From contig CAWDKS010000003.1 in assembly GCA_963802965.1 (NCBI GenBank), forward strand, positions 202,819-266,818: 64,000 bases of DNA, in the 5' to 3' direction. The notes under the pieces are model-generated. The model was not told the origin of the DNA and did not search any database. It saw nothing but the letters and a program-made list of their open reading frames with translations. The stretch comes from an uncultured Verrucomicrobiae bacterium. Lineage in GTDB: Bacteria > Verrucomicrobiota > Verrucomicrobiia > Limisphaerales > UBA11358. Of the stretch, positions 1,893 through 62,450 are shown piece by piece. Position 1 is the first letter of the stretch; every line of letters starts with the position of its first letter. Made by a program: the position numbers and the translations under genes.

Positions 1893-3455
<1,563 letters not shown>

Positions 3456-3596
3456 ACCAAGGGTCCGCGATAAAAAGCGGACTTTGAGGTCGAACCCCGG
3501 TGCAAACCGGGGGACTAGGCTCAACACCTTATCGCACAGTTCAGTTTTCCAATGGGCAGTCATGCTCTTTGGCAAGTGGAAGAGAATCGAACTCGA

Positions 3597-3666
3597 GATT
3601 TACGATATATGATTTACGATTGGGGTGCCGGTTGGTTGGCCAATCGTAAATCCGAAATCGTAAATC
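3597..3666. repeat. inverted repeat with 7-nt-periodic arms (AATCGTA units) in the 16S-tRNA spacer
   Basis: The left arm gatttacgatatatgatttacgatt (3597-3621) is complementary to the right arm aatcgta aatccga aatcgta aatc (3642-3666). The loop is ggggtgccggttggttggcc. Confidence 0.8.
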
Positions 3667-3677
3667 AAAAATGGGCT

Positions 3678-3753
3678 GGGGCTGTAGCTCAGTTGGTAGA
3701 GCGGTAGCTTTGCAAGCTATAGGTCAGGAGTTCGAGTCTCCTCAGCTCCACCA
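3678..3753 (+). tRNA. tRNA-Ala (TGC), CCA encoded
   Basis: Hand-folded cloverleaf: acceptor GGGGCTG/CAGCTCC with G3:U70, anticodon loop TTTGCAA, T-loop GGTTCGAGTCC-like. Confidence 0.95.
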
Positions 3754-3784
3754 GCCTTCGCTCGCAGCGAAGCAAGAGCGAGGC

Positions 3785-3815
3785 TGCCGCGCCGGAGCGA
3801 AGCGAAGGCGGGCGG
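3785..3815. repeat. 31-nt motif TGCCGCGCCGGAGCGAAGCGAAGGCGGGCGG, copy 1
   Basis: Lies about 30 nt downstream of tRNA-Ala. Near-identical copies occur at 3972-4002 and 31801-31831. Confidence 0.8.
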
Positions 3816-3873
3816 TTGAGCGCACACCGAAGTTTGAGTGCTGCGAGCTACGGCTCGGCAGGCCGGAAATTCC

Positions 3874-3950
3874 GGGCGTGTAGCTCAGTTGGTTAGAGCA
3901 TGCGCTTGATAAGCGCAGGGTCACTGGTTCGAGTCCAGTCACGCCCACCA
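3874..3950 (+). tRNA. tRNA-Ile (GAT), CCA encoded
   Basis: Acceptor GGGCGTG/CACGCCC, anticodon stem TGCGC/GCGCA with loop TTGATAA, T-arm CTGGTTCGAGTCCAG. Confidence 0.95.
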
Positions 3951-3971
3951 TTTTTTCGCTCCGCGGAAAAA

Positions 3972-4002
3972 TGCCGCGCCGGAGCAGAGCGAAGGCGGGC
4001 GG
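3972..4002. repeat. 31-nt motif TGCCGCGCCGGAGCAGAGCGAAGGCGGGCGG, copy 2
   Basis: Lies about 20 nt downstream of tRNA-Ile and differs from copy 1 at two adjacent positions. Confidence 0.8.
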
Positions 4003-4175
4003 GACATGGTCTCCACTTGCAGAAACAATTTTACCGGAACGGATTGTCCGGGCTCAAAAGGCTTGGACAAAAAGGTTCGGGATGTTCTTTGACAACTACA
4101 CATAGGTAATTCTAGGGCAAATACAGTTCGTTGAGTTCCTGCAACCTCGAAGGAGGTTGTTAGGTAAACTTTTGT

Positions 4176-7076
<2,901 letters not shown>

Positions 7077-7200
7077 TTTTTCTTTGCCTGTAGCCGCGAA
7101 CTTCGGTTCGCGAACTCCAGTCAGGGATTGGCGAATTTAACTCGCGAATTGGGAATGCCCAAAGAATCCTGTGTGTAGTTTTCAGAGAACGTTGTTCTTT

Positions 7201-7290
7201 GTCAGTAGTTGGCAGTCAGTAGTCAGCAGCGTGGGAATTGGGAAAGTCTGTTCCCTGCTAAGAGCAAGGATTGCTGACTGTTAACTGAAT
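7201..7290. repeat. 7-nt-periodic repeat (GTCAGTA units) with a partial inverted partner, in the 23S-5S spacer
   Basis: gtcagta gttggca gtcagta gtcagca at 7201-7228, with the complementary ttgctgactgttaactga at about 7271-7288. The same unit family is found inside mfd at 34711-34792. Confidence 0.6.
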
Positions 7291-7294
7291 ACTT

Positions 7295-7410
7295 TTTGGT
7301 GGCCTTAAAGCTGTGGTCCGACCCGATCCCATTCCGAACTCGGCCGTCAAACACAGCGTTGCCGATGGTAGTAGTCCTATAGGTTCTGCGAGAGTAGGTA
7401 GCCGCCAGTC
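7295..7410 (+). rRNA. rrf: 5S ribosomal RNA
   Basis: Helix I TTGGTGGCC/GGTAGCCGCCAG, plus the conserved CCGAACTC...GCCGATGGTAGT...GCGAGAGTAGG. Confidence 0.93.
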
Positions 7411-7483: not shown

Positions 7484-8806
7484 TCATCCTTGAGCCTTTG
7501 GCGGCAGGCGCAATGTCGAATCGGTCGGCGGTGCATCTTCACTTGCCTTTTCGAGCAGCGCGTTCGGAAGCGACTTTGCAGCCCTTGCGCCCAATTGTTT
7601 TAACTTCTCCGTCTGACTGACGAGGTTTCCCGATCCGGTGTGAAGTTTGGTTGAGGCGTCTTCCCACGCGTTGCGCGCCTTGCCGAGCGCATCGCCCACG
7701 GCTTGCAAATCTTCCACAAAGCCGGCGAACTTGTCGTAAAGTTTGCCGCCGCGGTCGGCGATTTCGAGGACGTGTTTTTGTTGGTCGGCCAGCCGCCAGA
7801 CGTGCGCGACCGTGCGGAGGGTGGCCAGCAAAGTCGAGTTGGTGATGAGCACGACGTTGTGATCCAACGCTTCGGCGAACAATCGCGGCTCGCGCGCGAT
7901 TGCTGCGAAAAACGCCGCCTCAATGGGTACATACATCAGCACGAAATCCGGCGTATTAATGCCATGGATGTCCTGATAACGCTTCGCGCCGAGGTCGCGG
8001 AAATGTTTGCGCAACGCCTCGACATGCCGGTCAAGGCCGGCGAGCCTGGCCGCATCATCAGGCGCATTTACGGATTCCTCGTAGGCACGCAACGAAACTT
8101 TGGAGTCAATCACCAGATTGCGTCTCTCCGGCAATTCCACAATTACGTCGAGAAAGCGCTGGTCACCTTCAGCATCCTTCGCGCTGCGTTGCCGATGATA
8201 GTGAATATCCTTCTGTAACCCGGACTTTTCGAGGATCTGGTCGAGCATGTTCTCACCCCAGTTGCCCAGCACCTTTACATCACCCTTGAGCGCCCTAGAA
8301 AGATTCGCCGCTTCCGCGCCAATGCGGCTGACCTGCTCTTTGAGCAGCGCGCTGTTTGTGGTTGTCGCGTCGTGGGTTTTATCGAGGCTGGCTTTAAACT
8401 CGCCGAGTTTTTCTTTCAACGGCTTGAGCACGTTTTCCAGACTTTCGGCGGACTGGCGGTTGAGATTGCTCGTATTCTCTGCGATAAGCTTGGTCGAAAT
8501 GGTTTCAAACTCCTTGCGAAATCTTTCCTGAATCGTCTCGATTTGCTGTCGCTCGGCCGAGAGCTGCTCTTTGAGAAACGTCAACTCCGAGTCCAATTCA
8601 CCATTGCGTTTCTCCAATCGCGCCGCGTTTGCGTTGGCCTGTTCGCGCTCGGAACGCAATTCCAACTCGCGCTGTTTGATTTGCTCCTGCAAAACATTTT
8701 CCAAACGTGAATCGGAACTTTTGCCGCTCCATTTCAGCCAGCCGAAGAAAAATCCCAGCGCGCCGCCGGCAAGCAGCGCAATCAAAAGTTGGATTCCGAG
8801 TGACAT
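7484..8806 (-). CDS. rmuC: DNA recombination protein RmuC
   Basis: ORF 7484..8896. The start is taken at ATG 8806 (MSLGIQLLIALLAGGALGFFFGW), because the 30 upstream codons are the translated palindromic repeat. The protein has an N-terminal TM and coiled coil, then the RmuC core (VIDSKVSLRAYEE, PDFVLMYVPIEAAF). Confidence 0.85.
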   Translation of the reverse strand: MSLGIQLLIALLAGGALGFFFGWLKWSGKSSDSRLENVLQEQIKQRELELRSEREQANANAARLEKRNGELDSELTFLKEQLSAERQQIETIQERFRKEFETISTKLIAENTSNLNRQSAESLENVLKPLKEKLGEFKASLDKTHDATTTNSALLKEQVSRIGAEAANLSRALKGDVKVLGNWGENMLDQILEKSGLQKDIHYHRQRSAKDAEGDQRFLDVIVELPERRNLVIDSKVSLRAYEESVNAPDDAARLAGLDRHVEALRKHFRDLGAKRYQDIHGINTPDFVLMYVPIEAAFFAAIAREPRLFAEALDHNVVLITNSTLLATLRTVAHVWRLADQQKHVLEIADRGGKLYDKFAGFVEDLQAVGDALGKARNAWEDASTKLHTGSGNLVSQTEKLKQLGARAAKSLPNALLEKASEDAPPTDSTLRLPPKAQG

Positions 8807-8815
8807 TATGTTTTT

Positions 8816-8886
8816 GTAGCAGCCGAGGTGACGAGGCTCAAATTTTTGGTCAAATCTAGTTAGAGCCGGCTCACGCCGGCTGCTAC
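8816..8886. repeat. palindromic element, TGTAG family (intergenic, rmuC-ridA)
   Basis: The arms are GTAGCAGCCGAGGTGACGAGGCTC (8816-8839) and GAGCCGGCTCACGCCGGCTGCTAC (8863-8886). Both are 24 nt and the pairing is imperfect. Confidence 0.75.
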
Positions 8887-8892
8887 GAGTAA

Positions 8893-9273
8893 TCAAAAGT
8901 GCGCGACGACCTCGATTTCCACGTTTGCGCCTTTGGGCAACGCGGCGACCTGGACGGTTGAACGCGCCGGGAAATCGCTCGTGAAATGTTTTGCGTAAAC
9001 CTCGTTCATCCCGGCGAAGTCGGCGAGGTTCGTCAGAAACACCGTGCTTTTCACGACACTGGCAAACGTCAATTTCTGGTCGTCCAGGATGGCTTTGACG
9101 TTCTGGAGCACGCGCTCGGTTTGCGTTTTGATGTCGCCGGAAATCAGATTGCCCGTGGCGGGATCAATCGGGATTTGGCCGGCGCAGAACAGGAGGTCGC
9201 CGACGCGCACAGCCTGATTGTAGGGGCCGACGGCGGCGGGTGATTTCGCGGGTTTAATGATGGTTTTTTTCAT
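8893..9273 (-). CDS. ridA: RidA family reactive-intermediate/imine deaminase
   Basis: 126 aa of the YjgF/UK114 family: GPYNQAVRVGDLLFCAGQIPIDP...GANVEIEVVA. Confidence 0.88.
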   Translation of the reverse strand: MKKTIIKPAKSPAAVGPYNQAVRVGDLLFCAGQIPIDPATGNLISGDIKTQTERVLQNVKAILDDQKLTFASVVKSTVFLTNLADFAGMNEVYAKHFTSDFPARSTVQVAALPKGANVEIEVVAHF

Positions 9274-9310: not shown

Positions 9311-10231
9311 TCAAAGATATTTTGCCAGAATGGGTTTCAGCTCGGTAACAGTTTTCTTCGGCCAGAACTTTTTGTCGGTCAGGATGGCGTTCTTGAGCGC
9401 GGAATGACATGGCCAGTCCGGTTCGGCGGGAATTTCGGCGATGGCGGCGGTGACGATTTTTTTCGCCGTGTCGGCGTTGCGATGCAGGTTGCCGATGATC
9501 ATTGCCAGCGTGACGTGTTCGTCCTCCTTCCAGCAATCGTAGTCGGTGGACATCGCGAGCGTGGCGTAGGCGATTTCCGCTTCGCGGGCGCATTTGGCCT
9601 CGCCGAGGTTCGTCATGCCGATGACGTCATATCCGGCGCGGTGGTTGGTGAGCGATTCGGCGCGGGTGCTGAACGCCGGGCCTTCCATGTTCACATAGGT
9701 GCCGCCATCGTGAATCGTCACACTTCGGAGGGACGAGCTACGCGAGTCCCTGTTTGAAATCTTGGGAATTGGGGACTCGTGTAACTCGTCCCTCCCAACT
9801 TTTAATAAAATTTGCCGCAGTTCCTCGCAAATTGGATGCGCAAACGCGACGTGCGCCACGATGCCGCGGCCAAAAAAGGTGTGGGCCAGCGATTGTTTGG
9901 TGCGGTCCACAAACTGGTCAACGAGCACGATGTCGCAGGGCTTGCATTTTTCCTGCAACGACCCGACGGCGCTGACGCTGATGATCCAGGCGACGCCGAG
10001 TTTTTTCATCGCCCAGATATTGGCCCGATGGTTGAGTTCGCTGGGCAGGATGCGGTGGCCCCGGCCATGCCGCGGCAGAAAGACAATGTCGCGCCCGGCC
10101 AATTTGCCGGTGAGCAAATCATCCGATGGCGGACCAAAGGGCGTCCTGACCTTCACCCATTTTTGCCCCGTGAAGCCTTCGATGTTGTAGAGGCCGGTGC
10201 CGCCGATGATGCCGATGCGATAATCAGACAT
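9311..10231 (-). CDS. mtnP: S-methyl-5'-thioadenosine phosphorylase
   Basis: IGIIGGTGLY, FLPRHGRGH and GMTNLGEAKCAREAEIAYATLAMSTDYDCW. The protein carries a 23-codon repeat-derived insertion (see repeat 9727..9795). Confidence 0.88.
   Translation of the reverse strand: MSDYRIGIIGGTGLYNIEGFTGQKWVKVRTPFGPPSDDLLTGKLAGRDIVFLPRHGRGHRILPSELNHRANIWAMKKLGVAWIISVSAVGSLQEKCKPCDIVLVDQFVDRTKQSLAHTFFGRGIVAHVAFAHPICEELRQILLKVGRDELHESPIPKISNRDSRSSSLRSVTIHDGGTYVNMEGPAFSTRAESLTNHRAGYDVIGMTNLGEAKCAREAEIAYATLAMSTDYDCWKEDEHVTLAMIIGNLHRNADTAKKIVTAAIAEIPAEPDWPCHSALKNAILTDKKFWPKKTVTELKPILAKYL
9727..9795. repeat. palindromic element (GGAGGGACGAG...CTCGTCCCTCC) in frame inside mtnP
   Basis: 24-nt arms GGAGGGACGAGCTACGCGAGTCCC (9727-9750) and GGGACTCGTGTAACTCGTCCCTCC (9772-9795) with 2 transition mismatches. 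The total is 69 nt, or 23 codons. Confidence 0.8.
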
Positions 10232-22427: not shown

Positions 22428-24188
<1,761 letters not shown>

Positions 24189-24311
24189 ACAACACTCAAC
24201 ACTCAATGCGCCCCGACTGCTGACCGAAAGCGGTAGTCTAATATCAATTGCCATTGCAATTTCGTCAAGTGGGGAAACGCCGTCTTCGGAAAGTCGCGTC
24301 CGCAAAATCGT

Positions 24312-31498: not shown

Positions 31499-35128
<3,630 letters not shown>

Positions 35129-35220
35129 ACGAATTCTACTGGCGTGGTCTCAAAATTTGTCAGCCTTTCATATCGTCGAAAAAACTCGCCGCTCCTCGTT
35201 TTCCAATTCATTTTATCCGC

Positions 35221-36309
35221 GTGCATCTGGCTCATTTGCGGCTGCGGGATTTTCGCAATTTTGCCCGGCTGGACGCGGATTTCGCGCCCGGCTTCCATCT
35301 GCTTTTGGGCGACAACGCGCAGGGCAAGACGAACATCCTCGAAGCCATCTATCTCATGGCCACGCTGCGGTCGTTCCGCGGCGTCGGCGGCGCGCAGATG
35401 ATCCGGCACGGCGCGAAGGGTTATTTCGCCGGCGGCAGCGTGGTGGGGCAGGGCGGCCACGAAATCAAAATCTACTGGTCGGCGCGCGAACGCAAACTGG
35501 CGCTGGACGGACAGCCGGTTAAACGCCTCGGCGATTATCTCGGCGTGTTGCGCACGGTGGTCTTTTGCACGGAGGATTTGCATCTGGTCAAGGGCACGGC
35601 ACGCGCTCGCCGGCGGTTTTTGGATCTGCTGCTGGCACAGACACGGCCCGGCTATCTGCCGCTGCTTCAGCGTTACATGCGCACCATCCGCGCCCGCAAT
35701 GCGCTGCTCAAACAACGCGCGATGGACGAGGCCGCGCTGGACAGTTTTTCGCAGGAACTCGTCAAGCTCGGCGACGAAATCATCCGCGCGCGCCGCGAGC
35801 TGGCGCCGAAATTCTCTCCATTGGCACGGCTGGCGTATCGCCGCATCTCGAACGAAGCGGAGGAATTACGGATCGAATATCAGCCGGGCGTGAAAAAGGA
35901 TTTCGCCGTGGAACTGGCGCAATCGCGTTCGCGTGAACGGACCTATCGCTCCACGCTCGTCGGCCCGCACCGGGACGATTTGCAATTGCTGCTCAACGAA
36001 AAATCCGCCGCGCATTTCGGCAGCGAGGGCCAGAAGCGCACGCTGGCCATCGCATTGAAGATGGCGCAGGCGGAATTTCTCACCGGCATCCACGGTTCGC
36101 CGCCGATTCTGCTGATTGACGACGTGATGGGCGAACTGGACGTGAAGCGCCGCAGCGGTTTTTTGCCGTTGCTGGATTACGCGCGCAAAAGCAGCGGACA
36201 GGTATTCATGACCGCCACCGAGGAAAACTGGCCGAGCGAACTCGGAAAAGATTTGCAGCGGTGGGAAGTTGTGAACGGAGCGTTGAAGCGTGATTTGTTG
36301 AAGCGTTGA
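35221..36309 (+). CDS. recF: DNA replication/repair protein RecF
   Basis: Probable GTG start at 35221 (VHLAHLRLRDFRNF); the ORF track starts at 35125. Walker A LLLGDNAQGKTNILEAIY, signature GSEGQKRTLAIALKMAQ, Walker B LLIDDVMGELD. Confidence 0.88.
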   Translation: MHLAHLRLRDFRNFARLDADFAPGFHLLLGDNAQGKTNILEAIYLMATLRSFRGVGGAQMIRHGAKGYFAGGSVVGQGGHEIKIYWSARERKLALDGQPVKRLGDYLGVLRTVVFCTEDLHLVKGTARARRRFLDLLLAQTRPGYLPLLQRYMRTIRARNALLKQRAMDEAALDSFSQELVKLGDEIIRARRELAPKFSPLARLAYRRISNEAEELRIEYQPGVKKDFAVELAQSRSRERTYRSTLVGPHRDDLQLLLNEKSAAHFGSEGQKRTLAIALKMAQAEFLTGIHGSPPILLIDDVMGELDVKRRSGFLPLLDYARKSSGQVFMTATEENWPSELGKDLQRWEVVNGALKRDLLKR

Positions 36310-36362
36310 AGCGGCTTGCTCGTTCCGCGCTTTAACGCTTTAACGCTTCAACGCTTTAACTT
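36282..36362. repeat. inverted repeat with 8-nt units (TTGAAGCG / CGCTTTAA) spanning the recF stop
   Basis: gttgaagcg tgatttg ttgaagcg ttgaagcg (36282-36312) faces cgctttaa cgctttaa cgcttcaa cgctttaa c (36328-36360). The recF stop (36307-36309) lies in the left arm. Confidence 0.8.
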
Positions 36363-37339: not shown

Positions 37340-37348
37340 ATTCCCTTT

Positions 37349-37408
37349 GTAGGAGACGAGGTAACGAGGCTCAATTTTTGATCAGAGACTCCTCACGTCG
37401 TCTCCTAC
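37349..37408. repeat. palindromic element, TGTAG family, between convergent trpS and kpsF
   Basis: The arms are GTAGGAGACGAGGTAACGAGGCTC (37349-37372) and GAGACTCCTCACGTCGTCTCCTAC (37385-37408). The kpsF stop codon (37405-37407) lies in the right arm. Confidence 0.85.
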
Positions 37409-38376
37409 ATTATTTTCAGCTTCGGCAAATCCTGCGAATCCACCAGGCCGACCGGCTCGCGCTTCGCGTTCACGACGATCAAATCGTCAATGTTCCGCTC
37501 GTTGAAAATTTTCAAGGCTTCAACCGCCAAAGCCTCGTGACCAATGCAAATCGGATGGCGCGTCATCACCTTTTTCAACGGCCGGGCCAGCAGATTTTCG
37601 TCCGTGGCCATGCACCGGCGGAAATCGCCGTCGGTGAAAACGCCCACGAGTTTGCCGCGCGCATTGACGACGCTCAGGCTGCCGGACCTGGCCTGCGTCA
37701 TCACCAGCAACGCCTCCCTGACCGGCAGGTTTTCGCCCGCAACCGCGTTGCGTTCGCCGGCGCGCATGATGTCGCCCACGCGCAACAGCATCGCGCGGCC
37801 AATCGCGCCGGAGGGATGAAATCGCGCGTAATCCTTCTGCTTGAATCCGCGCGCCTGCAACACCGCCATCGCCAGCGCGTCGCCCATCACGAGCATGGCC
37901 GTCGTGCTGCTCGTCGGCGCGAGATTGAACGGACAGGCTTCCTTCGGAACTTTGACGTTCAGGGAAACGTCGCTGTGTTTGGCGAGCGATGATTTCAAAT
38001 TGCCGGTGAGTGAAATGATTTTGACGGAAAATCTCTTGAGCGCGGGCAGCAGGTTGAGCAATTCCTCCGACTCGCCGGAGTAGCTCAACGCCAGGACCAC
38101 ATCGCCGTCGGCGATGATGCCGAGGTCGCCGTGCAAGGCGTCCACGCTGTTGAGCACGACGCTGGGCGCGCCGGTGCTCGTCAAGGTCGCGGAAATTTTC
38201 TGTCCGACGTTTCCCGATTTGCCGATGCCGACCACGACGATTTTCCCGCGTTGCCGCAGCGCCTCCACCATCAGCTCAACCGAGAGGTCAAAGGTTTTGC
38301 CCAACTGCGCGCGCACGGCCTTCAACGCGGCGAGTTCGATGTCGAACACTTTGCGGGCTTGGTCAAGATGGCTCAC
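37405..38376 (-). CDS. kpsF: arabinose-5-phosphate isomerase (KpsF/GutQ family)
   Basis: SIS domain VVVGIGKSGNVGQKISATLTSTG plus two C-terminal CBS domains. The start codon is GTG. Confidence 0.9.
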   Translation of the reverse strand: MSHLDQARKVFDIELAALKAVRAQLGKTFDLSVELMVEALRQRGKIVVVGIGKSGNVGQKISATLTSTGAPSVVLNSVDALHGDLGIIADGDVVLALSYSGESEELLNLLPALKRFSVKIISLTGNLKSSLAKHSDVSLNVKVPKEACPFNLAPTSSTTAMLVMGDALAMAVLQARGFKQKDYARFHPSGAIGRAMLLRVGDIMRAGERNAVAGENLPVREALLVMTQARSGSLSVVNARGKLVGVFTDGDFRRCMATDENLLARPLKKVMTRHPICIGHEALAVEALKIFNERNIDDLIVVNAKREPVGLVDSQDLPKLKIM

Positions 38377-53153: not shown

Positions 53154-53229
53154 CGGCGGTCTGTGACCGCCGAAAGGTAGGGACGCCGCGCTGCGGCGTC
53201 CGGTCGGCGCAGCGCGCCGACCCGACCGG
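53154..53229. repeat. three consecutive GC-rich hairpins between hoxH and hoxW
   Basis: CGGCGGT-ctgtg-ACCGCCG (53154-53172), GGACGCCGC-gct-GCGGCGTCC (53181-53201) and GGTCGGCGC-agc-GCGCCGACC (53202-53222). Confidence 0.75.
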
Positions 53230-54074: not shown

Positions 54075-56531
54075 GTGAACGCGCCGCCAGCAACGCGATT
54101 GAAGATCGCCGTGCGCGGCGCGGTGCAGGGCGTCGGGTTTCGCCCGTTCGTTTTCCGCCTCGCCACCGGACTCGGCCTGGCCGGCTGGGTCAACAATTCC
54201 CCGCGGGGCGTCTTCATTGAAGTTGAAGGCCCGCGCGCGTCGCTCGAAAAATTCCTGCTCCGCCTCGAAGCGGAAAAGCCGCCGCGCAGCTTCATTCAAA
54301 GCCTCGAAACGTTGTGGCTCGATCCGGCCGGTCAGACCGGTTTTGAAATCCGCGCGAGTGAAACCGGCGGCGGCAAAACCGCGCTCGTCTTGCCGGACAT
54401 CGCCACCTGTCCCGATTGTCTGCGCGAAATTTTTGATCCCAAGAACCGGCGGCACCGCTATCCATTCACGAATTGCACGAATTGCGGGCCGCGCTTCAGC
54501 ATCATCGAATCCCTGCCTTACGACCGCGCGAACACCTCGATGAAATCGTTCACGATGTGCCCGCAATGCCGGGCCGAATACGACGACCCACTAGACCGCC
54601 GTTTCCACGCGCAGCCCAACGCCTGCCCGGTCTGCGGACCGCGCCTGACGCTTTGGGAGTGCGGCGACATGTCGCCGCTTTCAAAGCGCGGACATGTCCG
54701 CGCACTCCAAAATAACAATGCCTTGCTCGCTGCCGCTGAATCCATCCGCTGCGGTAAAATCGTCGCCGTCAAGGGACTGAGCGGATTTCATCTGATGGCG
54801 GATGCGCGCAACGACAAGGCCGTCCGGCTCCTGCGAAAACGAAAACATCGCGAGGAAAAGCCATTCGCCCTGATGTTTCCATCACTCGAAAGCGTGAAAG
54901 CCGAATGCGAAGTCTCCCCACTCGAAGAACGATTACTCCGCTCATCGGAGGCACCCATCGTTCTTTTGGAAAAAATCGTAAATCGCAAATCGCAAATCGT
55001 AAATGCCGTGGCTCCCGGCAATCCCAATCTCGGCGCGATGTTGCCGTCGAACCCGCTGCATCATCTGCTCATGGCCGAACTGGGCTTTCCGGTCGTCGCC
55101 ACCAGCGGCAACCTGGGCGACGAACCGGTTTGCACGGATGAACATGAGGCGCGGGAACGTCTCGGCCGCATCGCCGATGTGTTTCTGGTTCATAACCGCC
55201 CCATCGTCCGTCACGTGGACGATTCGATTGTGCGCGTCATGCTGGACCGTGAACTGGTGCTGCGCCGCGCCCGCGGCTACGCGCCGCTGCCCATTCAACT
55301 CGTAGGAGCCGACGTGAGGAGGCTCAACCTTCAAGAACAAAATGAGTCAGAGCCTCCTCACGTCGGCTCCTACAAAACAATTCTGGCCGTTGGTGCGCAC
55401 CTGAAAAACACCGTCGCGCTCGCCGTCGGCAATCAGGTTTTCCTCAGCCAGCACATCGGCGATTTGGAGACGGAACCGGCGCATGCCGCCTTCCGCCGTG
55501 TCATTGCTGATTTCCAGAAACTTTACGACACCCGGCCGCAAATCATCGCCGCCGATTTGCACCCGGATTATCTCTCGACCAGATTTGCGCGTGAATTCGG
55601 CGATGCGCCGTTGGAGTTCACGCTTCAGCGTGTTCCGAAAGCGCAGACGACAGGCAAGCTAAAGCTTGAACTCCAACACGTTGGCGTCCAGCACCACGTC
55701 GCCCATGTCCTGTCCTGCATGGCGGAGAATGAAATCGCGCCGCCCGCGCTCGGCGTTTCGTGGGACGGCACGGGTTACGGGCTTGACGGCACAATCTGGG
55801 GCGGTGAATTTTTCCTCGTCACCAACGAAACCGTCGAACGGGTCGCGCATCTGCGCCCGTTCCGGTTGCCCGGCGGCGACAAGGCGGTCAAGGAACCGCG
55901 CCGCACCGCGCTCGGATTGCTATACGAAATTTCCGGCGACAAGGTTTTCAAACGGAAAAAACTGGCAACGATTGCCGCTTTTTCGGCGGCGGAAATGGTC
56001 ACGCTGAAAACGATGCTGGCCAAAAAATTGAATTCGCCGCTTTGTTCCAGCGCGGGCCGGTTGTTCGACGCCGTCGCCTCGCTCGTCAATCTCCGCCAGC
56101 ACATCCGGTTTGAAGGCCAGGCCGCGATGGACCTGGAATTTGCGCTGGATGGCGTGGACACAGACGAGACTTATCCCTTGTCACTCGTCACTCGTCACCC
56201 GTCACTGGTCCTGGATTGGTCGCCGATGATTGAGGCGATTTTATCGGACGTGCAAAATGGCGTTCCCGGTGGCAGGATTTCCGCGAAGTTTCACAACGCG
56301 CTGGCCCAGGCCGTGGTGGCCGTGGCAAAAAAAATCGGCGAACGGCGCGTGGTGTTGAGCGGTGGCTGTTTTCAAAACCGTTATCTGACGGAGCGAACGG
56401 TGCGGCGGTTGCAGGCGGAAGGGTTCCGCCCGTATTGGCACCAGCGCGTGCCGCCCAACGACGGGGGAATCGCGCTGGGTCAGGTCCTGGCGGCGTTTCG
56501 AGAACGGCAGATCGTAAATCGTAAATCATAA
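54075..56531 (+). CDS. hypF: carbamoyltransferase HypF
   Basis: GTG start. Acylphosphatase domain (VRGAVQGVGFRPFV), two zinc fingers (CPDCLREI...CTNCGPRFSI, CPQCRAEY...CPVCGP), YrdC-like (VAVKGLSGFHLMADA) and Kae1-like (VQHHVAHV) domains. Contains six repeat-derived segments. Confidence 0.92.
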   Translation: MNAPPATRLKIAVRGAVQGVGFRPFVFRLATGLGLAGWVNNSPRGVFIEVEGPRASLEKFLLRLEAEKPPRSFIQSLETLWLDPAGQTGFEIRASETGGGKTALVLPDIATCPDCLREIFDPKNRRHRYPFTNCTNCGPRFSIIESLPYDRANTSMKSFTMCPQCRAEYDDPLDRRFHAQPNACPVCGPRLTLWECGDMSPLSKRGHVRALQNNNALLAAAESIRCGKIVAVKGLSGFHLMADARNDKAVRLLRKRKHREEKPFALMFPSLESVKAECEVSPLEERLLRSSEAPIVLLEKIVNRKSQIVNAVAPGNPNLGAMLPSNPLHHLLMAELGFPVVATSGNLGDEPVCTDEHEARERLGRIADVFLVHNRPIVRHVDDSIVRVMLDRELVLRRARGYAPLPIQLVGADVRRLNLQEQNESEPPHVGSYKTILAVGAHLKNTVALAVGNQVFLSQHIGDLETEPAHAAFRRVIADFQKLYDTRPQIIAADLHPDYLSTRFAREFGDAPLEFTLQRVPKAQTTGKLKLELQHVGVQHHVAHVLSCMAENEIAPPALGVSWDGTGYGLDGTIWGGEFFLVTNETVERVAHLRPFRLPGGDKAVKEPRRTALGLLYEISGDKVFKRKKLATIAAFSAAEMVTLKTMLAKKLNSPLCSSAGRLFDAVASLVNLRQHIRFEGQAAMDLEFALDGVDTDETYPLSLVTRHPSLVLDWSPMIEAILSDVQNGVPGGRISAKFHNALAQAVVAVAKKIGERRVVLSGGCFQNRYLTERTVRRLQAEGFRPYWHQRVPPNDGGIALGQVLAAFRERQIVNRKS
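54652..54712. repeat. nested palindromic element inside hypF
   Basis: Outer arms TTTGGGAGTGCG and CGCACTCCAAAA enclose the palindromes GGCGACATGTCGCC and GCGCGGACATGTCCGCGC. It is translated as WECGDMSPLSKRGHVRALQN. Confidence 0.8.
54974..55001. repeat. tandem heptamers AATCGTA AATCGCA AATCGCA AATCGTA inside hypF
   Basis: Four 7-nt units followed by aatgcc, translated as IVNRKSQIVN. The unit family is the same as at 3642-3666 and 56510-56537. Confidence 0.85.
55302..55373. repeat. perfect 24-bp-armed palindromic element, TGTAG family, in frame inside hypF
   Basis: GTAGGAGCCGACGTGAGGAGGCTC (55302-55325), a 24-nt loop, then GAGCCTCCTCACGTCGGCTCCTAC (55350-55373). The total is 72 nt, or 24 codons (VGADVRRLNLQEQNESEPPHVGSY). 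Confidence 0.92.
55611..55676. repeat. palindromic element, TTGGAGTTCA family, in frame inside hypF
   Basis: The arms are TTGGAGTTCACGCTT (55611-55625) and AAGCTTGAACTCCAA (55662-55676), with 1 mismatch. The total is 66 nt, or 22 codons (LEFTLQRVPKAQTTGKLKLELQ). Confidence 0.88.
56181..56208. repeat. tandem heptamers TCACTCG TCACTCG TCACCCG TCACTGG inside hypF
   Basis: Four 7-nt units, translated as SLVTRHPSLV. Confidence 0.8.
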
Positions 56532-56537
56532 ATCGAA
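56510..56537. repeat. tandem heptamers GATCGTA AATCGTA AATCATA AATCGAA spanning the hypF stop
   Basis: These supply the last residues (QIVNRKS) and the TAA stop (56529-56531) of hypF. The element ends 6 nt before the hypC ATG. Confidence 0.85.
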
Positions 56538-56543
56538 AATTCC

Positions 56544-56798
56544 ATGTGTCTGGCCATTCCAGGAAAGATTGAAAGCATCAGCGGCGATGACCCGCTGTCG
56601 CGCACGGGCAAAATAAATTTCGGCGGCGTCCTTAAGGAAGCCTGCCTTGCCTATGTGCCCGAGGCCAGGGTCGGCGATTACGTCATCGTCCACGTCGGCT
56701 TCGCCCTCAGCCGGCTCGACGAAGACGAGGCACACAAGATTTTTGAGTATCTGAAACAAATGGAGGAGCTTGGCGAGTTGAAGGGAGGCGGGCCATGA
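56544..56798 (+). CDS. hypC: hydrogenase assembly chaperone HypC
   Basis: [13 protein letters not shown]-terminus with the essential Cys2; 84 aa. Confidence 0.9.
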
Positions 56799-56812: not shown

Positions 56813-56894
56813 GTGGCACGGGCGTCCCGCCCGTCCGTTTCAAAAGCAGTCCGTTTTTCAGACCAGAAACTCACAGGCGAGAAGCCTGTGCCAC
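56813..56894. repeat. palindromic element filling the hypC-hypD gap
   Basis: Outer arms GTGGCACGGGC (56813-56823) and GCCTGTGCCAC (56884-56894), with an inner hairpin ACGGGC-gtccc-GCCCGT. The element ends 1 nt before the hypD ATG. Confidence 0.65.
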
Positions 56895-57984: not shown

Positions 57985-58005
57985 ACCAGCCATGAAGAAA
58001 CACTC

Positions 58006-58100
58006 AACAACCAACATCCAACACCGAACATCCAATTTTTCCCGGAAAGGCAGACGCAGATCCTTCGATGTTGGGCGTTGGATGTTCGATGTTCGATGTT
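58006..58100. repeat. inverted repeat with AACATCC/AACATCG heptamer arms between hypD and hypE
   Basis: aacaacc aacatcc aacaccg aacatcc (58006-58033) is complementary to tcgatgttgggcgttggatgttcgatgttcgatgtt (58065-58100). Confidence 0.85.
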
Positions 58101-58117
58101 TTCAATTCTGATTTTTT

Positions 58118-62363: not shown

Positions 62364-62378
62364 AACATTTTTTATCTT

Positions 62379-62446
62379 GTAGGAGCCGAGGTAACGAGGC
62401 TCATAATTTGTATTTTCAATTAGAGCCTCCTCACGTCGGCTCCTAC
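62379..62446. repeat. palindromic element, TGTAG family, between the DHOD-like gene and the PFOR gene
   Basis: GTAGGAGCCGAGGTAACGAGGCTC (62379-62402) and GAGCCTCCTCACGTCGGCTCCTAC (62423-62446). The right arm is identical to the hypF copy. Confidence 0.9.
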
Positions 62447-62450
62447 AGTT

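Follow-up and report, generated by a model that had tools for sequence, protein, structure and literature searches.

The hypF gene in a 64-kb stretch of contig CAWDKS010000003.1 from an uncultured soil Verrucomicrobiae bacterium (hereafter the window, whose coordinates are used throughout) contains six translated segments of repeat DNA, and it is probable that tolerant positions of this apparently functional gene have been colonised by short dispersed genomic repeats, the encoded peptides being passengers rather than adaptations. hypF (54075-56531, plus strand, 2.46 kb, GTG start and TAA stop) encodes a protein of 818 residues. The six segments that an earlier note on this DNA had located in the gene were all recovered in frame when peptides were matched to coordinates (Table 1), and at the nucleotide level they are repeat DNA far beyond chance. 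Segments 1, 3 and 4, i.e. a nested palindrome, an inverted pair of repetitive extragenic palindrome (REP) units and a hairpin, are true in-frame insertions; segments 2 and 5 are resident heptamer arrays and not insertions, and a third heptamer array, segment 6, ends the gene.

Results

Integrity of the hypF Host Gene

The HypF product retains a complete Pfam architecture, with matches to Acylphosphatase (PF00708, residues 10-92), zf-HYPF in two stretches (PF07503, the best at 161-193), YrdC-like (PF01300, 223-398), HypF_C (PF17788, 434-551) and HypF_C_2 (PF22521, 560-803), and the solved HypF structure 3vth_A was aligned to residues 8-807 with an E-value of 1.5e-188. As the earlier note had maintained, the catalytic motifs stay in frame: the four CxxC zinc motifs (CPDC 112-115, CTNC 134-137, CPQC 162-165 and CPVC 184-187) and the VQHHVAH metal-binding motif (538-544) are kept, and the eight zinc-finger cysteines as well as Q539, H540, H541, A543 and H544 were invariant in a set of 120 HypF relatives. 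These relatives, which show 71-80% identity and belong to Verrucomicrobiota according to their source names, are all full-length proteins, a composition that biases the set against seeing frameshifted alleles.

The gene stands in a contiguous cluster with hoxH, a protease gene, hypA, hypC, hypD and hypE (hypF being placed between hypA and hypC), and the hypF-hypC-hypD-hypE order is kept in six relatives. The hypC ATG lies at 56544, leaving a spacer of 12 nt after the hypF stop codon. When 656 core codons were compared with those of four relatives, the ratio of nonsynonymous to synonymous rates (dN/dS) was 0.08-0.13, with dS values of about 0.7-1.3. Judged from these sequence comparisons, hypF is functional and strong purifying selection acts on it; with this core dN/dS and a complete hyp operon, it is not the decaying gene that the earlier note had considered as a possibility.

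Table 1. Repeat segments of hypF, further repeat copies and ribosomal RNA operon genes in the window
Feature	Description	Position	Strand	Coding context
Segment 1	57-nt TTGGAGT-type nested palindrome	54652-54712 (core 54654-54710)	+	19 codons, residues 194-212, encodes WECGDMSPLSKRGHVRALQ
Segment 2	Heptamer array AAATCGT/AAATCGC (AAATCGY), 4.6 units	54973-55004	+	Residues 301-310, IVNRKSQIVN
Segment 3	Inverted pair of GTAG-tagged REP units	55302-55373	+	72 nt, 24 codons, residues 410-433
Segment 4	TTGGAGTTCA-type hairpin	55610-55677 (core 55611-55676)	+	66 nt, 22 codons, residues 513-534
Segment 5	Heptamer array GTCACTC, 4.4 units	56180-56210	+	Residues 703-712, SLVTRHPSLV
Segment 6	Heptamer array AAATCGT, 4.3 units	56511-56540	+	Residues 812-818, TAA stop 56529-56531, most of the spacer before hypC
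GTAG REP pair	One arm matches the hypF arms exactly	62378-62447		Intergenic
GTAG REP pair		37348-37409		Between convergent genes
GTAG REP pair	Compensatory stem variants	8816-8886		Overlaps the called 5' end of RmuC-family open reading frame 7484-8896 (-)
TTGGAGTTCA hairpin	Second window copy	32579-32633	+	In frame in mfd
Heptamer hairpin	CAACATC array and inverted complement	57998-58101		hypD/hypE spacer
16S rRNA		1893-3445
tRNA-Ala		3678-3753
tRNA-Ile		3874-3950
23S rRNA		4176-7076
5S rRNA		7295-7410

Palindromic Segments

The insertions of this HypF relative to the solved structures 3vth and 4g9i fall exactly at segments 1, 3 and 4, and all three form hairpins when folded as RNA. Segment 1, whose arms (54652-54681 and 54683-54712) show 83% complementarity, occupies the linker from the second zinc finger to the YrdC-like domain, at a 14-residue gap in 3vth, with a folding energy of -37.2 kcal/mol (z = -6.7). 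A second copy of its 33-nt core was not found in the 64-kb window; 31 exact copies with unrelated flanks are present in other genomes of the collection, and they define the 57-nt element TTGGAGTGCGGCGACATGTCGCCGCTTTCAAAGCGCGGACATGTCCGCGCACTCCAA, which is stop-free in five of the six reading frames. A comparison of its three-frame peptides with proteins returned only 12 short hypothetical open reading frames (ORFs) and missed even the HypF relatives, the word index being ill-suited to short queries.

Segment 3 occupies the linker that joins the YrdC-like to the Kae1-like domain, at an 18-residue gap in 3vth. Its arms (55302-55325 and 55350-55373), which read GTAGGAGCC... and ...GGCTCCTAC, are 24 nt each, 100% complementary and separated by a 24-nt spacer, and the predicted hairpin is the most stable of the three (-54.4 kcal/mol, z = -12.5). 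The TGTAG element described here in the earlier note does exist and carries the terminal GTAG, but the hypF copy begins with cGTAG rather than TGTAG. The arm has six matches in the window, compared with 0.00 in shuffled sequences, and is identical to an intergenic window copy. The pair is open in the GTA-GGA frame only, which is the frame used in hypF. Other copies of the family consist of GTAG, a 6-7-bp stem and a GTGA loop, with compensatory variants of the stem (GTAG-CA-GCCGAC-GTGA-GTCGGC-TC and GCCGGC/GCCGGC); the hypF copy has a 5-bp internal stem only (GAGCC/GGCTC). The 64 kb hold four such inverted pairs, which apart from the hypF pair are intergenic or sit on the margin of a gene, and more copies were found in the loci of related metagenome-assembled genomes (MAGs).

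Segment 4 (arms 55610-55632 and 55655-55677, 87% complementarity; -28.8 kcal/mol, z = -3.1) lies four residues ahead of VQHHVAH, in a Kae1-like N-subdomain loop and at a 23-residue gap in 3vth; the HypF_C match of this host subdomain spreads 118 residues over 96 profile positions. Its arm has four matches in the window against 0.00 in shuffled sequences, and the 22-mer arm is present in at least 120 metagenome contigs. The element is built as TTGGAGTT-CAAGC-TTTA-GCTTG, followed by a variable loop of 8-30 nt and then by the complement, that is, as an inverted pair of small stem-loops, and its total length ranges from 49 to 86 nt across copies. Segments 1 and 4 and a third family, found at the position of segment 4 in relatives, share the ends TTGGA(G/A)...CTCCAA, which suggests one superfamily with a common end tag.

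Heptamer Arrays

Segment 2 lies inside the YrdC-like domain, with a net gain of 3 residues over 3vth, and segment 5 inside the Kae1-like C-subdomain, where it aligns with 3vth residues with a 1-residue gap and no net insertion. Two AlphaFold2 models, based on 25- and 120-sequence alignments, had a mean predicted local distance difference test score (pLDDT) of 52 and 58 and are usable for residues ~540-810; in both of them, segment 5 is a confidently modelled beta-hairpin, with strands at 703-707 and 710-714 and pLDDT values of 81-96. A description as insertions fits segments 1, 3 and 4 (14, 18 and 23 residues) but not for segments 2 and 5, and a location in inter-domain linkers holds for segments 1 and 3, whereas segment 4 lies in a loop and segment 5 in a beta-hairpin.

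The earlier proposal that the C terminus of HypF is itself repeat-derived was borne out, since segment 6 provides the final 6-7 codons of hypF and the stop codon is the array's own TAA. This tail is outside the aligned end of 3vth and is disordered in the AlphaFold models; a similar one occurs in 18 (+2) of the 120 relatives, and the remaining relatives stop 3-4 residues past R809. A pure AAATCGT array of at least three units contains TAA in every frame, and segment 2 owes its open frame to the two middle units, AAATCGC, T-to-C variants that remove the in-frame TAA.

Arrays of period 7 were clearly in excess: the window has eight of them, compared with 0.2 in Markov shuffles, and all other periods from 4 to 12 were at or near background (0-2 arrays versus 0.1-0.3). 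Over 385 kb, comprising the window and the loci of relatives, there were 31 arrays of period 7 and 2-5 for periods 5, 6, 8, 9 and 10. Their size is uniform (median 4.1 units, maximum 5.1), and no RNA structure was predicted for them by folding. Of the eight window arrays, six are inside mfd or hypF or border on them, and rpoD holds another, so that they are not predominantly intergenic. Inverted pairs of heptamer arrays are found in the window at 3597-3666, 32846-32924, 34720-34793 and 57998-58101, and the AAATCGT unit of the hypF arrays also builds intergenic hairpins.

Turnover of the Segments among HypF Orthologs

Among the 120 relatives, length variation of at least 6 residues is confined to eight regions of HypF, i.e. 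the N terminus, residues 195-214, 300-312, 408-435, 506-536, 621-633 and 699-709, and the C terminus, and these positions accept 10-66 extra residues. The six segments occupy six of the eight regions (referred to below as sites 1 to 6, after the segments), each with 16-29 distinct peptide variants. Segment 1 was present in 38 relatives, segment 2 in 31, segment 3 in 7-17, segment 4 in 4-10 and segment 5 in 44. Identical repeat-encoded peptides appear at different regions, as is the case for AECGVRNAARGDARPT at sites 3 and 5 and for the segment 1 peptide, which is also found at the C terminus of HypF in two relatives. When the DNA of six relatives was inspected at the variable sites, other REP-like palindromes, TTGGA-tagged hairpins, longer elements and heptamer arrays with other units were found. 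The palindromic inserts of the window gene (residues 194-212, 410-433 and 513-534) are present in none of the 11 nearest relatives by core sequence (11-12.6% amino acid distance), yet they occur in some distant ones.

The conservation of the segments that do recur is a conservation of DNA. Third-codon positions are 60% identical in the core; they are 90-100% identical in segment 1 when compared with relatives L002-L004, and 100% identical in segments 2 and 5 where relatives retain the same heptamer unit, indicating that the repeat DNA is young or homogenised. At site 2, six of seven genomes have an array of the same length, with 14 codons from anchor to anchor, and the unit varies by genome, with all copies changing together (AAATCGC, CAATCGC or AAATCCG); similarly, at site 5 the window has TCACTCG as its unit and L004 has TCACGCA. 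Such a change of all copies alters the peptide and thus reflects repeat dynamics, not protein-level conservation. Consequently, the ortholog alignment put forward in the earlier note as a check for conserved HypF sequence gave a mixed outcome, with segments 1, 2 and 5 recurring in the numbers given above, but conserved as DNA and not as protein. Phase variation by slippage of the heptamers was set aside as the array length is constant in the six genomes mentioned.

The hot spot at residues 621-633 (nt ~55935-55973) contains a GRREGAPTSTRGACAP-type palindromic insert in ~20 of the 120 relatives, with the DNA sequence GGTCGGCGCGAGGGCGCGCC... in L004; the window gene has a short, apparently empty form at this position.

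Repeat Copies in Other Genes and Spacers

Copies of the hypF palindrome families were also verified in frame in genes for Lhr helicase, a TsaB-like protein, XseA, phosphoglucomutase (between domains I and II), a glycogen debranching enzyme (between GDE_N and GDE_C), an FAD-oxidase/Fe-S fusion, Mfd and a kinase-WD40 protein. According to the earlier note, long linkers of long multidomain proteins may act as safe harbours for such repeats. This is in agreement with the position of 7 of the ~11 verified host sites, which fall between Pfam domains of long proteins, although the way in which hosts were found favours long ORFs. Support is only partial, though: short hosts exist (a 306-residue PNP-family enzyme in the window and a 235-residue TsaB-like protein), and repeat scans found none in the long neighbours PPDK (915 residues) and GH3 (771 residues) of the window, or in PFOR (1219 residues) and a 987-residue kinase in the loci of relatives. 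Also in favour of the idea, the ~150 kb surrounding hypF in five genomes showed palindromes within genes almost solely in hypF and mfd.

The mfd gene of the window (31499-35128, 1209 residues) carries at least five in-frame repeat segments (31968-31998, 32579-32633, 32634-32660, 32846-32924 and 34711-34793), two of which are heptamer hairpins with both arms translated. Its TTGGAGTTCA hairpin is placed between the UvrB-interaction and RID domains, and a metagenomic Mfd (L110) has a member of this family in the matching inter-domain region. The 306-residue host, a PNP/UDP phosphorylase family enzyme (ORF 9311-10231, minus strand), includes in frame a 75-nt palindrome of the CGGAGGGACGAG family (9724-9798); its Pfam domain covers 261 residues for 233 profile positions, and the same family is found at hypF site 3 of relatives. 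In a 625-residue sigma-70 rpoD-like ORF (22428-24305, minus strand), a CAACACT array of 2.4 units (24190-24206) lies at about residues 33-38, upstream of region 1.1. The GTAG pair that overlaps the RmuC-family ORF covers the first ~27 codons of its longest form, the RmuC domain starting at residue 151; translation probably begins farther downstream, which would leave the element intergenic. A single period-8 element was seen, consisting of an inverted pair of octamer arrays, AGCGTTGA (4.5 units) and CGCTTTAA (4.1 units), at 36279-36360; it is built like the heptamer hairpins and straddles the stop codon of a RecF/SMC-N family ORF (35125-36309, plus strand).

In the hydrogenase cluster, a GGTAGGG-type palindrome (53176-53227) separates hoxH from the protease gene, and a GTGGCAC REP pair (56813-56894), which resembles the O. 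terrae GTAG-19/20 peptides TGGTPVP, is located in the hypC/hypD spacer. Relatives show repeats of other sequence at matching spacers of their hydrogenase/hyp clusters, including heptamer hairpins with other units between hypD and hypE. The window also contains a complete rRNA operon (1893-7410), with a heptamer hairpin with AATCGTA arms (3597-3666) in the 16S/tRNA-Ala spacer and a GTCAGTA array (7201-7229) between 23S and 5S, so rRNA spacers have been colonised too.

The identical 33-nt core of segment 1 was found in MAGs labelled Methylomirabilota (four contigs of one MAG), Sulfopaludibacter, Sumerlaeota, Baltobacteraceae and Bifidobacteriaceae (loci L008, L014, L016, L017, L020, L023, L025, L028, L030 and L034). 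The "Methylomirabilota" contigs have 52-54% GC and contain the GTAG family as well, which makes mis-binning or mislabelling as likely as inter-phylum spread, and we do not accept a cross-phylum spread of the 57-nt element as demonstrated.

Discussion

A Proposed Filter of Selection on Dispersed Repeats

The results described above would be explained if hairpin palindromes of the TTGGAGT, GTAG and TTGGAGTTCA types disperse over the genome as non-autonomous mobile DNA, possibly through REP/RAYT-like transposition or through a mechanism like that of miniature transposable elements of the inverted-repeat type (MITEs). Copies within genes would persist only if they alter the length by a multiple of three overall, leave the host frame free of stops and lie at a tolerant position; in hypF, they would thus have contributed 19, 24 and 22 codons to the zinc-finger/YrdC linker, the YrdC/Kae1 linker and the loop ahead of VQHHVAH. 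The heptamer arrays, perhaps produced by slippage or gene conversion, would have a fixed size of about four units, two of them having long resided in a loop and in a beta-hairpin, respectively. These resident arrays would be homogenised at the DNA level, with the unit shifting in all copies at constant length and T-to-C variants keeping the frame open, and a third array would have overrun the 3' end of hypF to create a tail and a stop codon. The encoded peptides would then probably be neutral.

Several observations weigh against this explanation. Segments 2 and 5 contribute little or no length relative to 3vth, and the passenger label is doubtful for segment 5 because it encodes a structural beta-hairpin. 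The near-perfect conservation of segment 1 DNA amid saturated synonymous sites could also reflect selection on the hairpin. Fitch counts of changes on a core neighbour-joining tree exceed the minimum at site 1 (55 versus 15), site 3 (72 versus 24) and site 4 (75 versus 28), but they are inflated by the nearly star-like shape of that tree. Although segments 1 and 3 lie between Pfam domains, both AlphaFold models are poor over residues 1-540, so that a surface exposure of segments 1 to 4 is suggested by domain boundaries only. Furthermore, in the segment 4 family the length of the TTGGAG..CTCCAA core was divisible by three in none of the 19 in-gene copies. The Pfam-verified ones (loci L077, L131, L110, L111, L055 and L076) have cores of 53, 53, 53, 68, 68 and 52 nt; like the window copies (55611-55676 and 32580-32633) they are all flanked by g...c, and counting these flanking bases does not restore a multiple of three. 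A consistent target-site duplication was not found at 31 junctions of the segment 1 family and 8 of the segment 4 family, which showed only an extension of the palindrome, as g...c or T...A. Since the core length is not a multiple of three and target-site duplications are not consistent, simple cut-and-paste insertion is not demonstrated.

Alternative Explanations

It is possible, though on balance doubtful, that the eight sites are hot because new elements are drawn to the hairpins or arrays already resident in them or because cassettes are swapped there. Such targeted replacement, modelled on the hairpin-directed single-strand transposition of IS200/IS605 and RAYT enzymes, would modify rather than exclude the filter of selection proposed above. 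The 16-29 variants per site and the families common to several sites are consistent with it, as is the agreement of insert boundaries, within about one codon, across genomes with unrelated elements. REP units and heptamer arrays adjoin at site 5 in L001 and L156, the site 2 array of L156 has been replaced by a 68-residue element with no remnant, and two Xanthomonas species have been reported to carry different REPs at nearly the same position of recB (PMC3733652). However, these loops are also length-variable in the distant HypF proteins 3vth and 4g9i, which lack the repeats, so tolerance alone predicts the hot positions; a loop that holds 60-70 nt of neutral DNA is already a much larger neutral target; and no nested insertion, in which one element is split by another, was found in seven genomes.

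An extended form of targeting appears unlikely to us. It would take the eight HypF sites, together with similar sites in Mfd and other enzymes, as places of active cassette exchange in which hairpins home to resident hairpins, and the fixed-size heptamer arrays (~4.4 units) as written by a dedicated mechanism and not by polymerase slippage. If true, conserved enzymes of a soil lineage would carry continuously renewed peptide loops, and the TTGGAG-tagged palindromes would represent a third REP-like tag class in addition to GTAG and CGTC, perhaps with movement across phyla.

In E. coli, REPs serve as binding sites for gyrase and IHF, and the hypF segments might likewise act as nucleic acids, either as protein-bound DNA sites or as mRNA hairpins at domain boundaries that influence ribosome pausing or mRNA half-life. 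The hairpins are indeed of great stability (-29 to -54 kcal/mol), two of them sit precisely between one Pfam domain and the next, third-codon positions reach 90-100% identity in segments 1, 2 and 5 of several relatives versus 60% in the core, and the heptamer arrays are fixed at about four units. Nevertheless, we consider such a role decidedly improbable: the closest relatives bear other families at these sites under equal purifying selection, site 1 of the relative P0057/L001 is without a recognisable repeat element, identical elements fill intergenic and rRNA spacers, and the heptamer arrays lack RNA structure.

There is very little likelihood that segments 2 and 5 are native HypF sequence, conserved as protein and 7-nt periodic by chance. 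Their fixed positions in 31 and 44 of the 120 relatives, the almost complete lack of added length relative to 3vth and the modelled beta-hairpin would fit that idea, which is contradicted by the excess of period 7 (8 versus 0.2 in the window, 31 versus 2-5 over 385 kb), by the absence of synonymous changes within the arrays of several relatives whose flanks are saturated, by the joint change of unit in every copy with an altered peptide, and by the use of the AAATCGT unit in intergenic hairpins. Finally, for all the unusual load of six segments in 2.46 kb, a decaying gene in which repeats piled up without selection, or an artefact of mis-joined contigs, has next to no chance of being correct and was rejected, given the open ORF with all domains and motifs, the dN/dS of ~0.1, the complete cluster, the synteny in relatives, the recurrence of the architecture in >100 independent assemblies, and elements shorter than sequencing reads.

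Relation to Known Repeat Systems

The colonisation of tolerant hypF positions by dispersed repeats has one of its closest precedents in the GTAG- and CGTC-tagged REPs described by Di Nocera, De Gregorio & Rocco (2013), who found intragenic GTAG REPs to be most numerous in the verrucomicrobium Opitutus terrae (PMC3733652). In that organism, a GTAG REP is located at residues 3-9 of HypF (Oter_4514) and many others in DNA-repair genes; intragenic REP dimers encode 20-30 residues, and flexible linkers were proposed as their sites (PMC3733652). Segment 3 resembles these REPs and REPINs in that it begins with GTAG and ends with CTAC, is an inverted stem-loop pair with dispersed copies, is read in the same GTA-GGN...TAC frame as the O. 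terrae inserts (VGPALAAG...PY), and encodes 24 residues, within the reported range; the repeats in the mfd gene of the window match the DNA-repair pattern as well. In contrast, the stem sequence of segment 3 differs, and in O. terrae HypF the copy consists of one unit only and may precede the true start, whereas segment 3 is internal and stands beside five other segments.

Palindromes inserted in frame in functional genes were reportedly first recognised in Rickettsia, as the Rickettsia palindromic elements (RPEs) of Ogata et al. (2000) and Claverie & Ogata (2003), which PMC3733652 also mentions. RPE peptides are regarded as lying in tolerant surface regions. The hypF palindromes share with RPEs the in-frame insertion (19, 24 and 22 codons) into a host gene that remains intact. 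RPEs are said, however, to be longer and AT-rich, and to occur in reduced intracellular genomes as mostly old insertions shared between species; the hypF segments comprise several unrelated families in a free-living, GC-rich lineage, where they replace each other faster than the core protein diverges. The palindromes are also comparable with MITEs (Correia/NEMIS, RUP, ERIC and Nezha) as short, non-coding, hairpin-forming and dispersed elements that are occasionally in frame in genes, but they differ from them by the lack of a consistent target-site duplication at the 31 and 8 junctions, by a size of only 50-75 nt and by being built of two small stem-loop units, like REP dimers.

Heptameric repeats (GGGAATC and GGGGAYT) have been reported in Xanthomonas and Nostoc by Rehm et al. 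(2015), with a preference for four units, frequent convergent pairs, positions near stop codons and 7-11% of intragenic copies (PMC4692102). Like these and other heptameric simple sequence repeats, such as the short tandemly repeated repetitive (STRR) sequences of Calothrix and Nostoc, the window arrays have a 7-nt unit, about four units, inverted pairs, locations near or over stop codons, and positions that are stable between relatives with a variable sequence. They differ in that six of eight are intragenic, versus the 7-11% of Xanthomonas, and in that their units (AAATCGY, GTCACTC, CAACATC and AGTCCAC) are not G-rich, for which reason the G-quadruplex explanation of the four-unit preference cannot apply to them. 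Searches of the literature on STRR sequences in coding regions and on RPE hotspots returned nothing useful.

Significance

Translated selfish DNA inside genes is a known kind of phenomenon, of which hypF is an unusually dense case with an unusually fast turnover. What is new is the density, with six segments of three kinds packed into a single 2.46-kb gene, and the extent to which individual sites turn over among orthologs; new, too, are the TTGGAG-tagged families and heptamer arrays that are not G-rich and lie mostly within genes, one of them encoding a structural hairpin and another the stop codon. The four-unit preference of such heptamers undercuts the G-quadruplex explanation offered for Xanthomonas and Nostoc, and the contribution of palindromes to protein sequence in a free-living, GC-rich phylum, where several families and heptamer arrays act jointly, contrasts with the Rickettsia paradigm. 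In work on soil metagenomes, repeat peptides common to unrelated proteins may mislead clustering by homology, the prediction of domains, phylogeny and binning. For HypF itself, the variable sites amount to a natural map of insertion tolerance, of use in engineering and in reading HypF structures, and, since the repeats turn over faster than the core diverges, the sequence of the HypF loops would be dictated by the repeat content of the genome and not by the needs of the protein.

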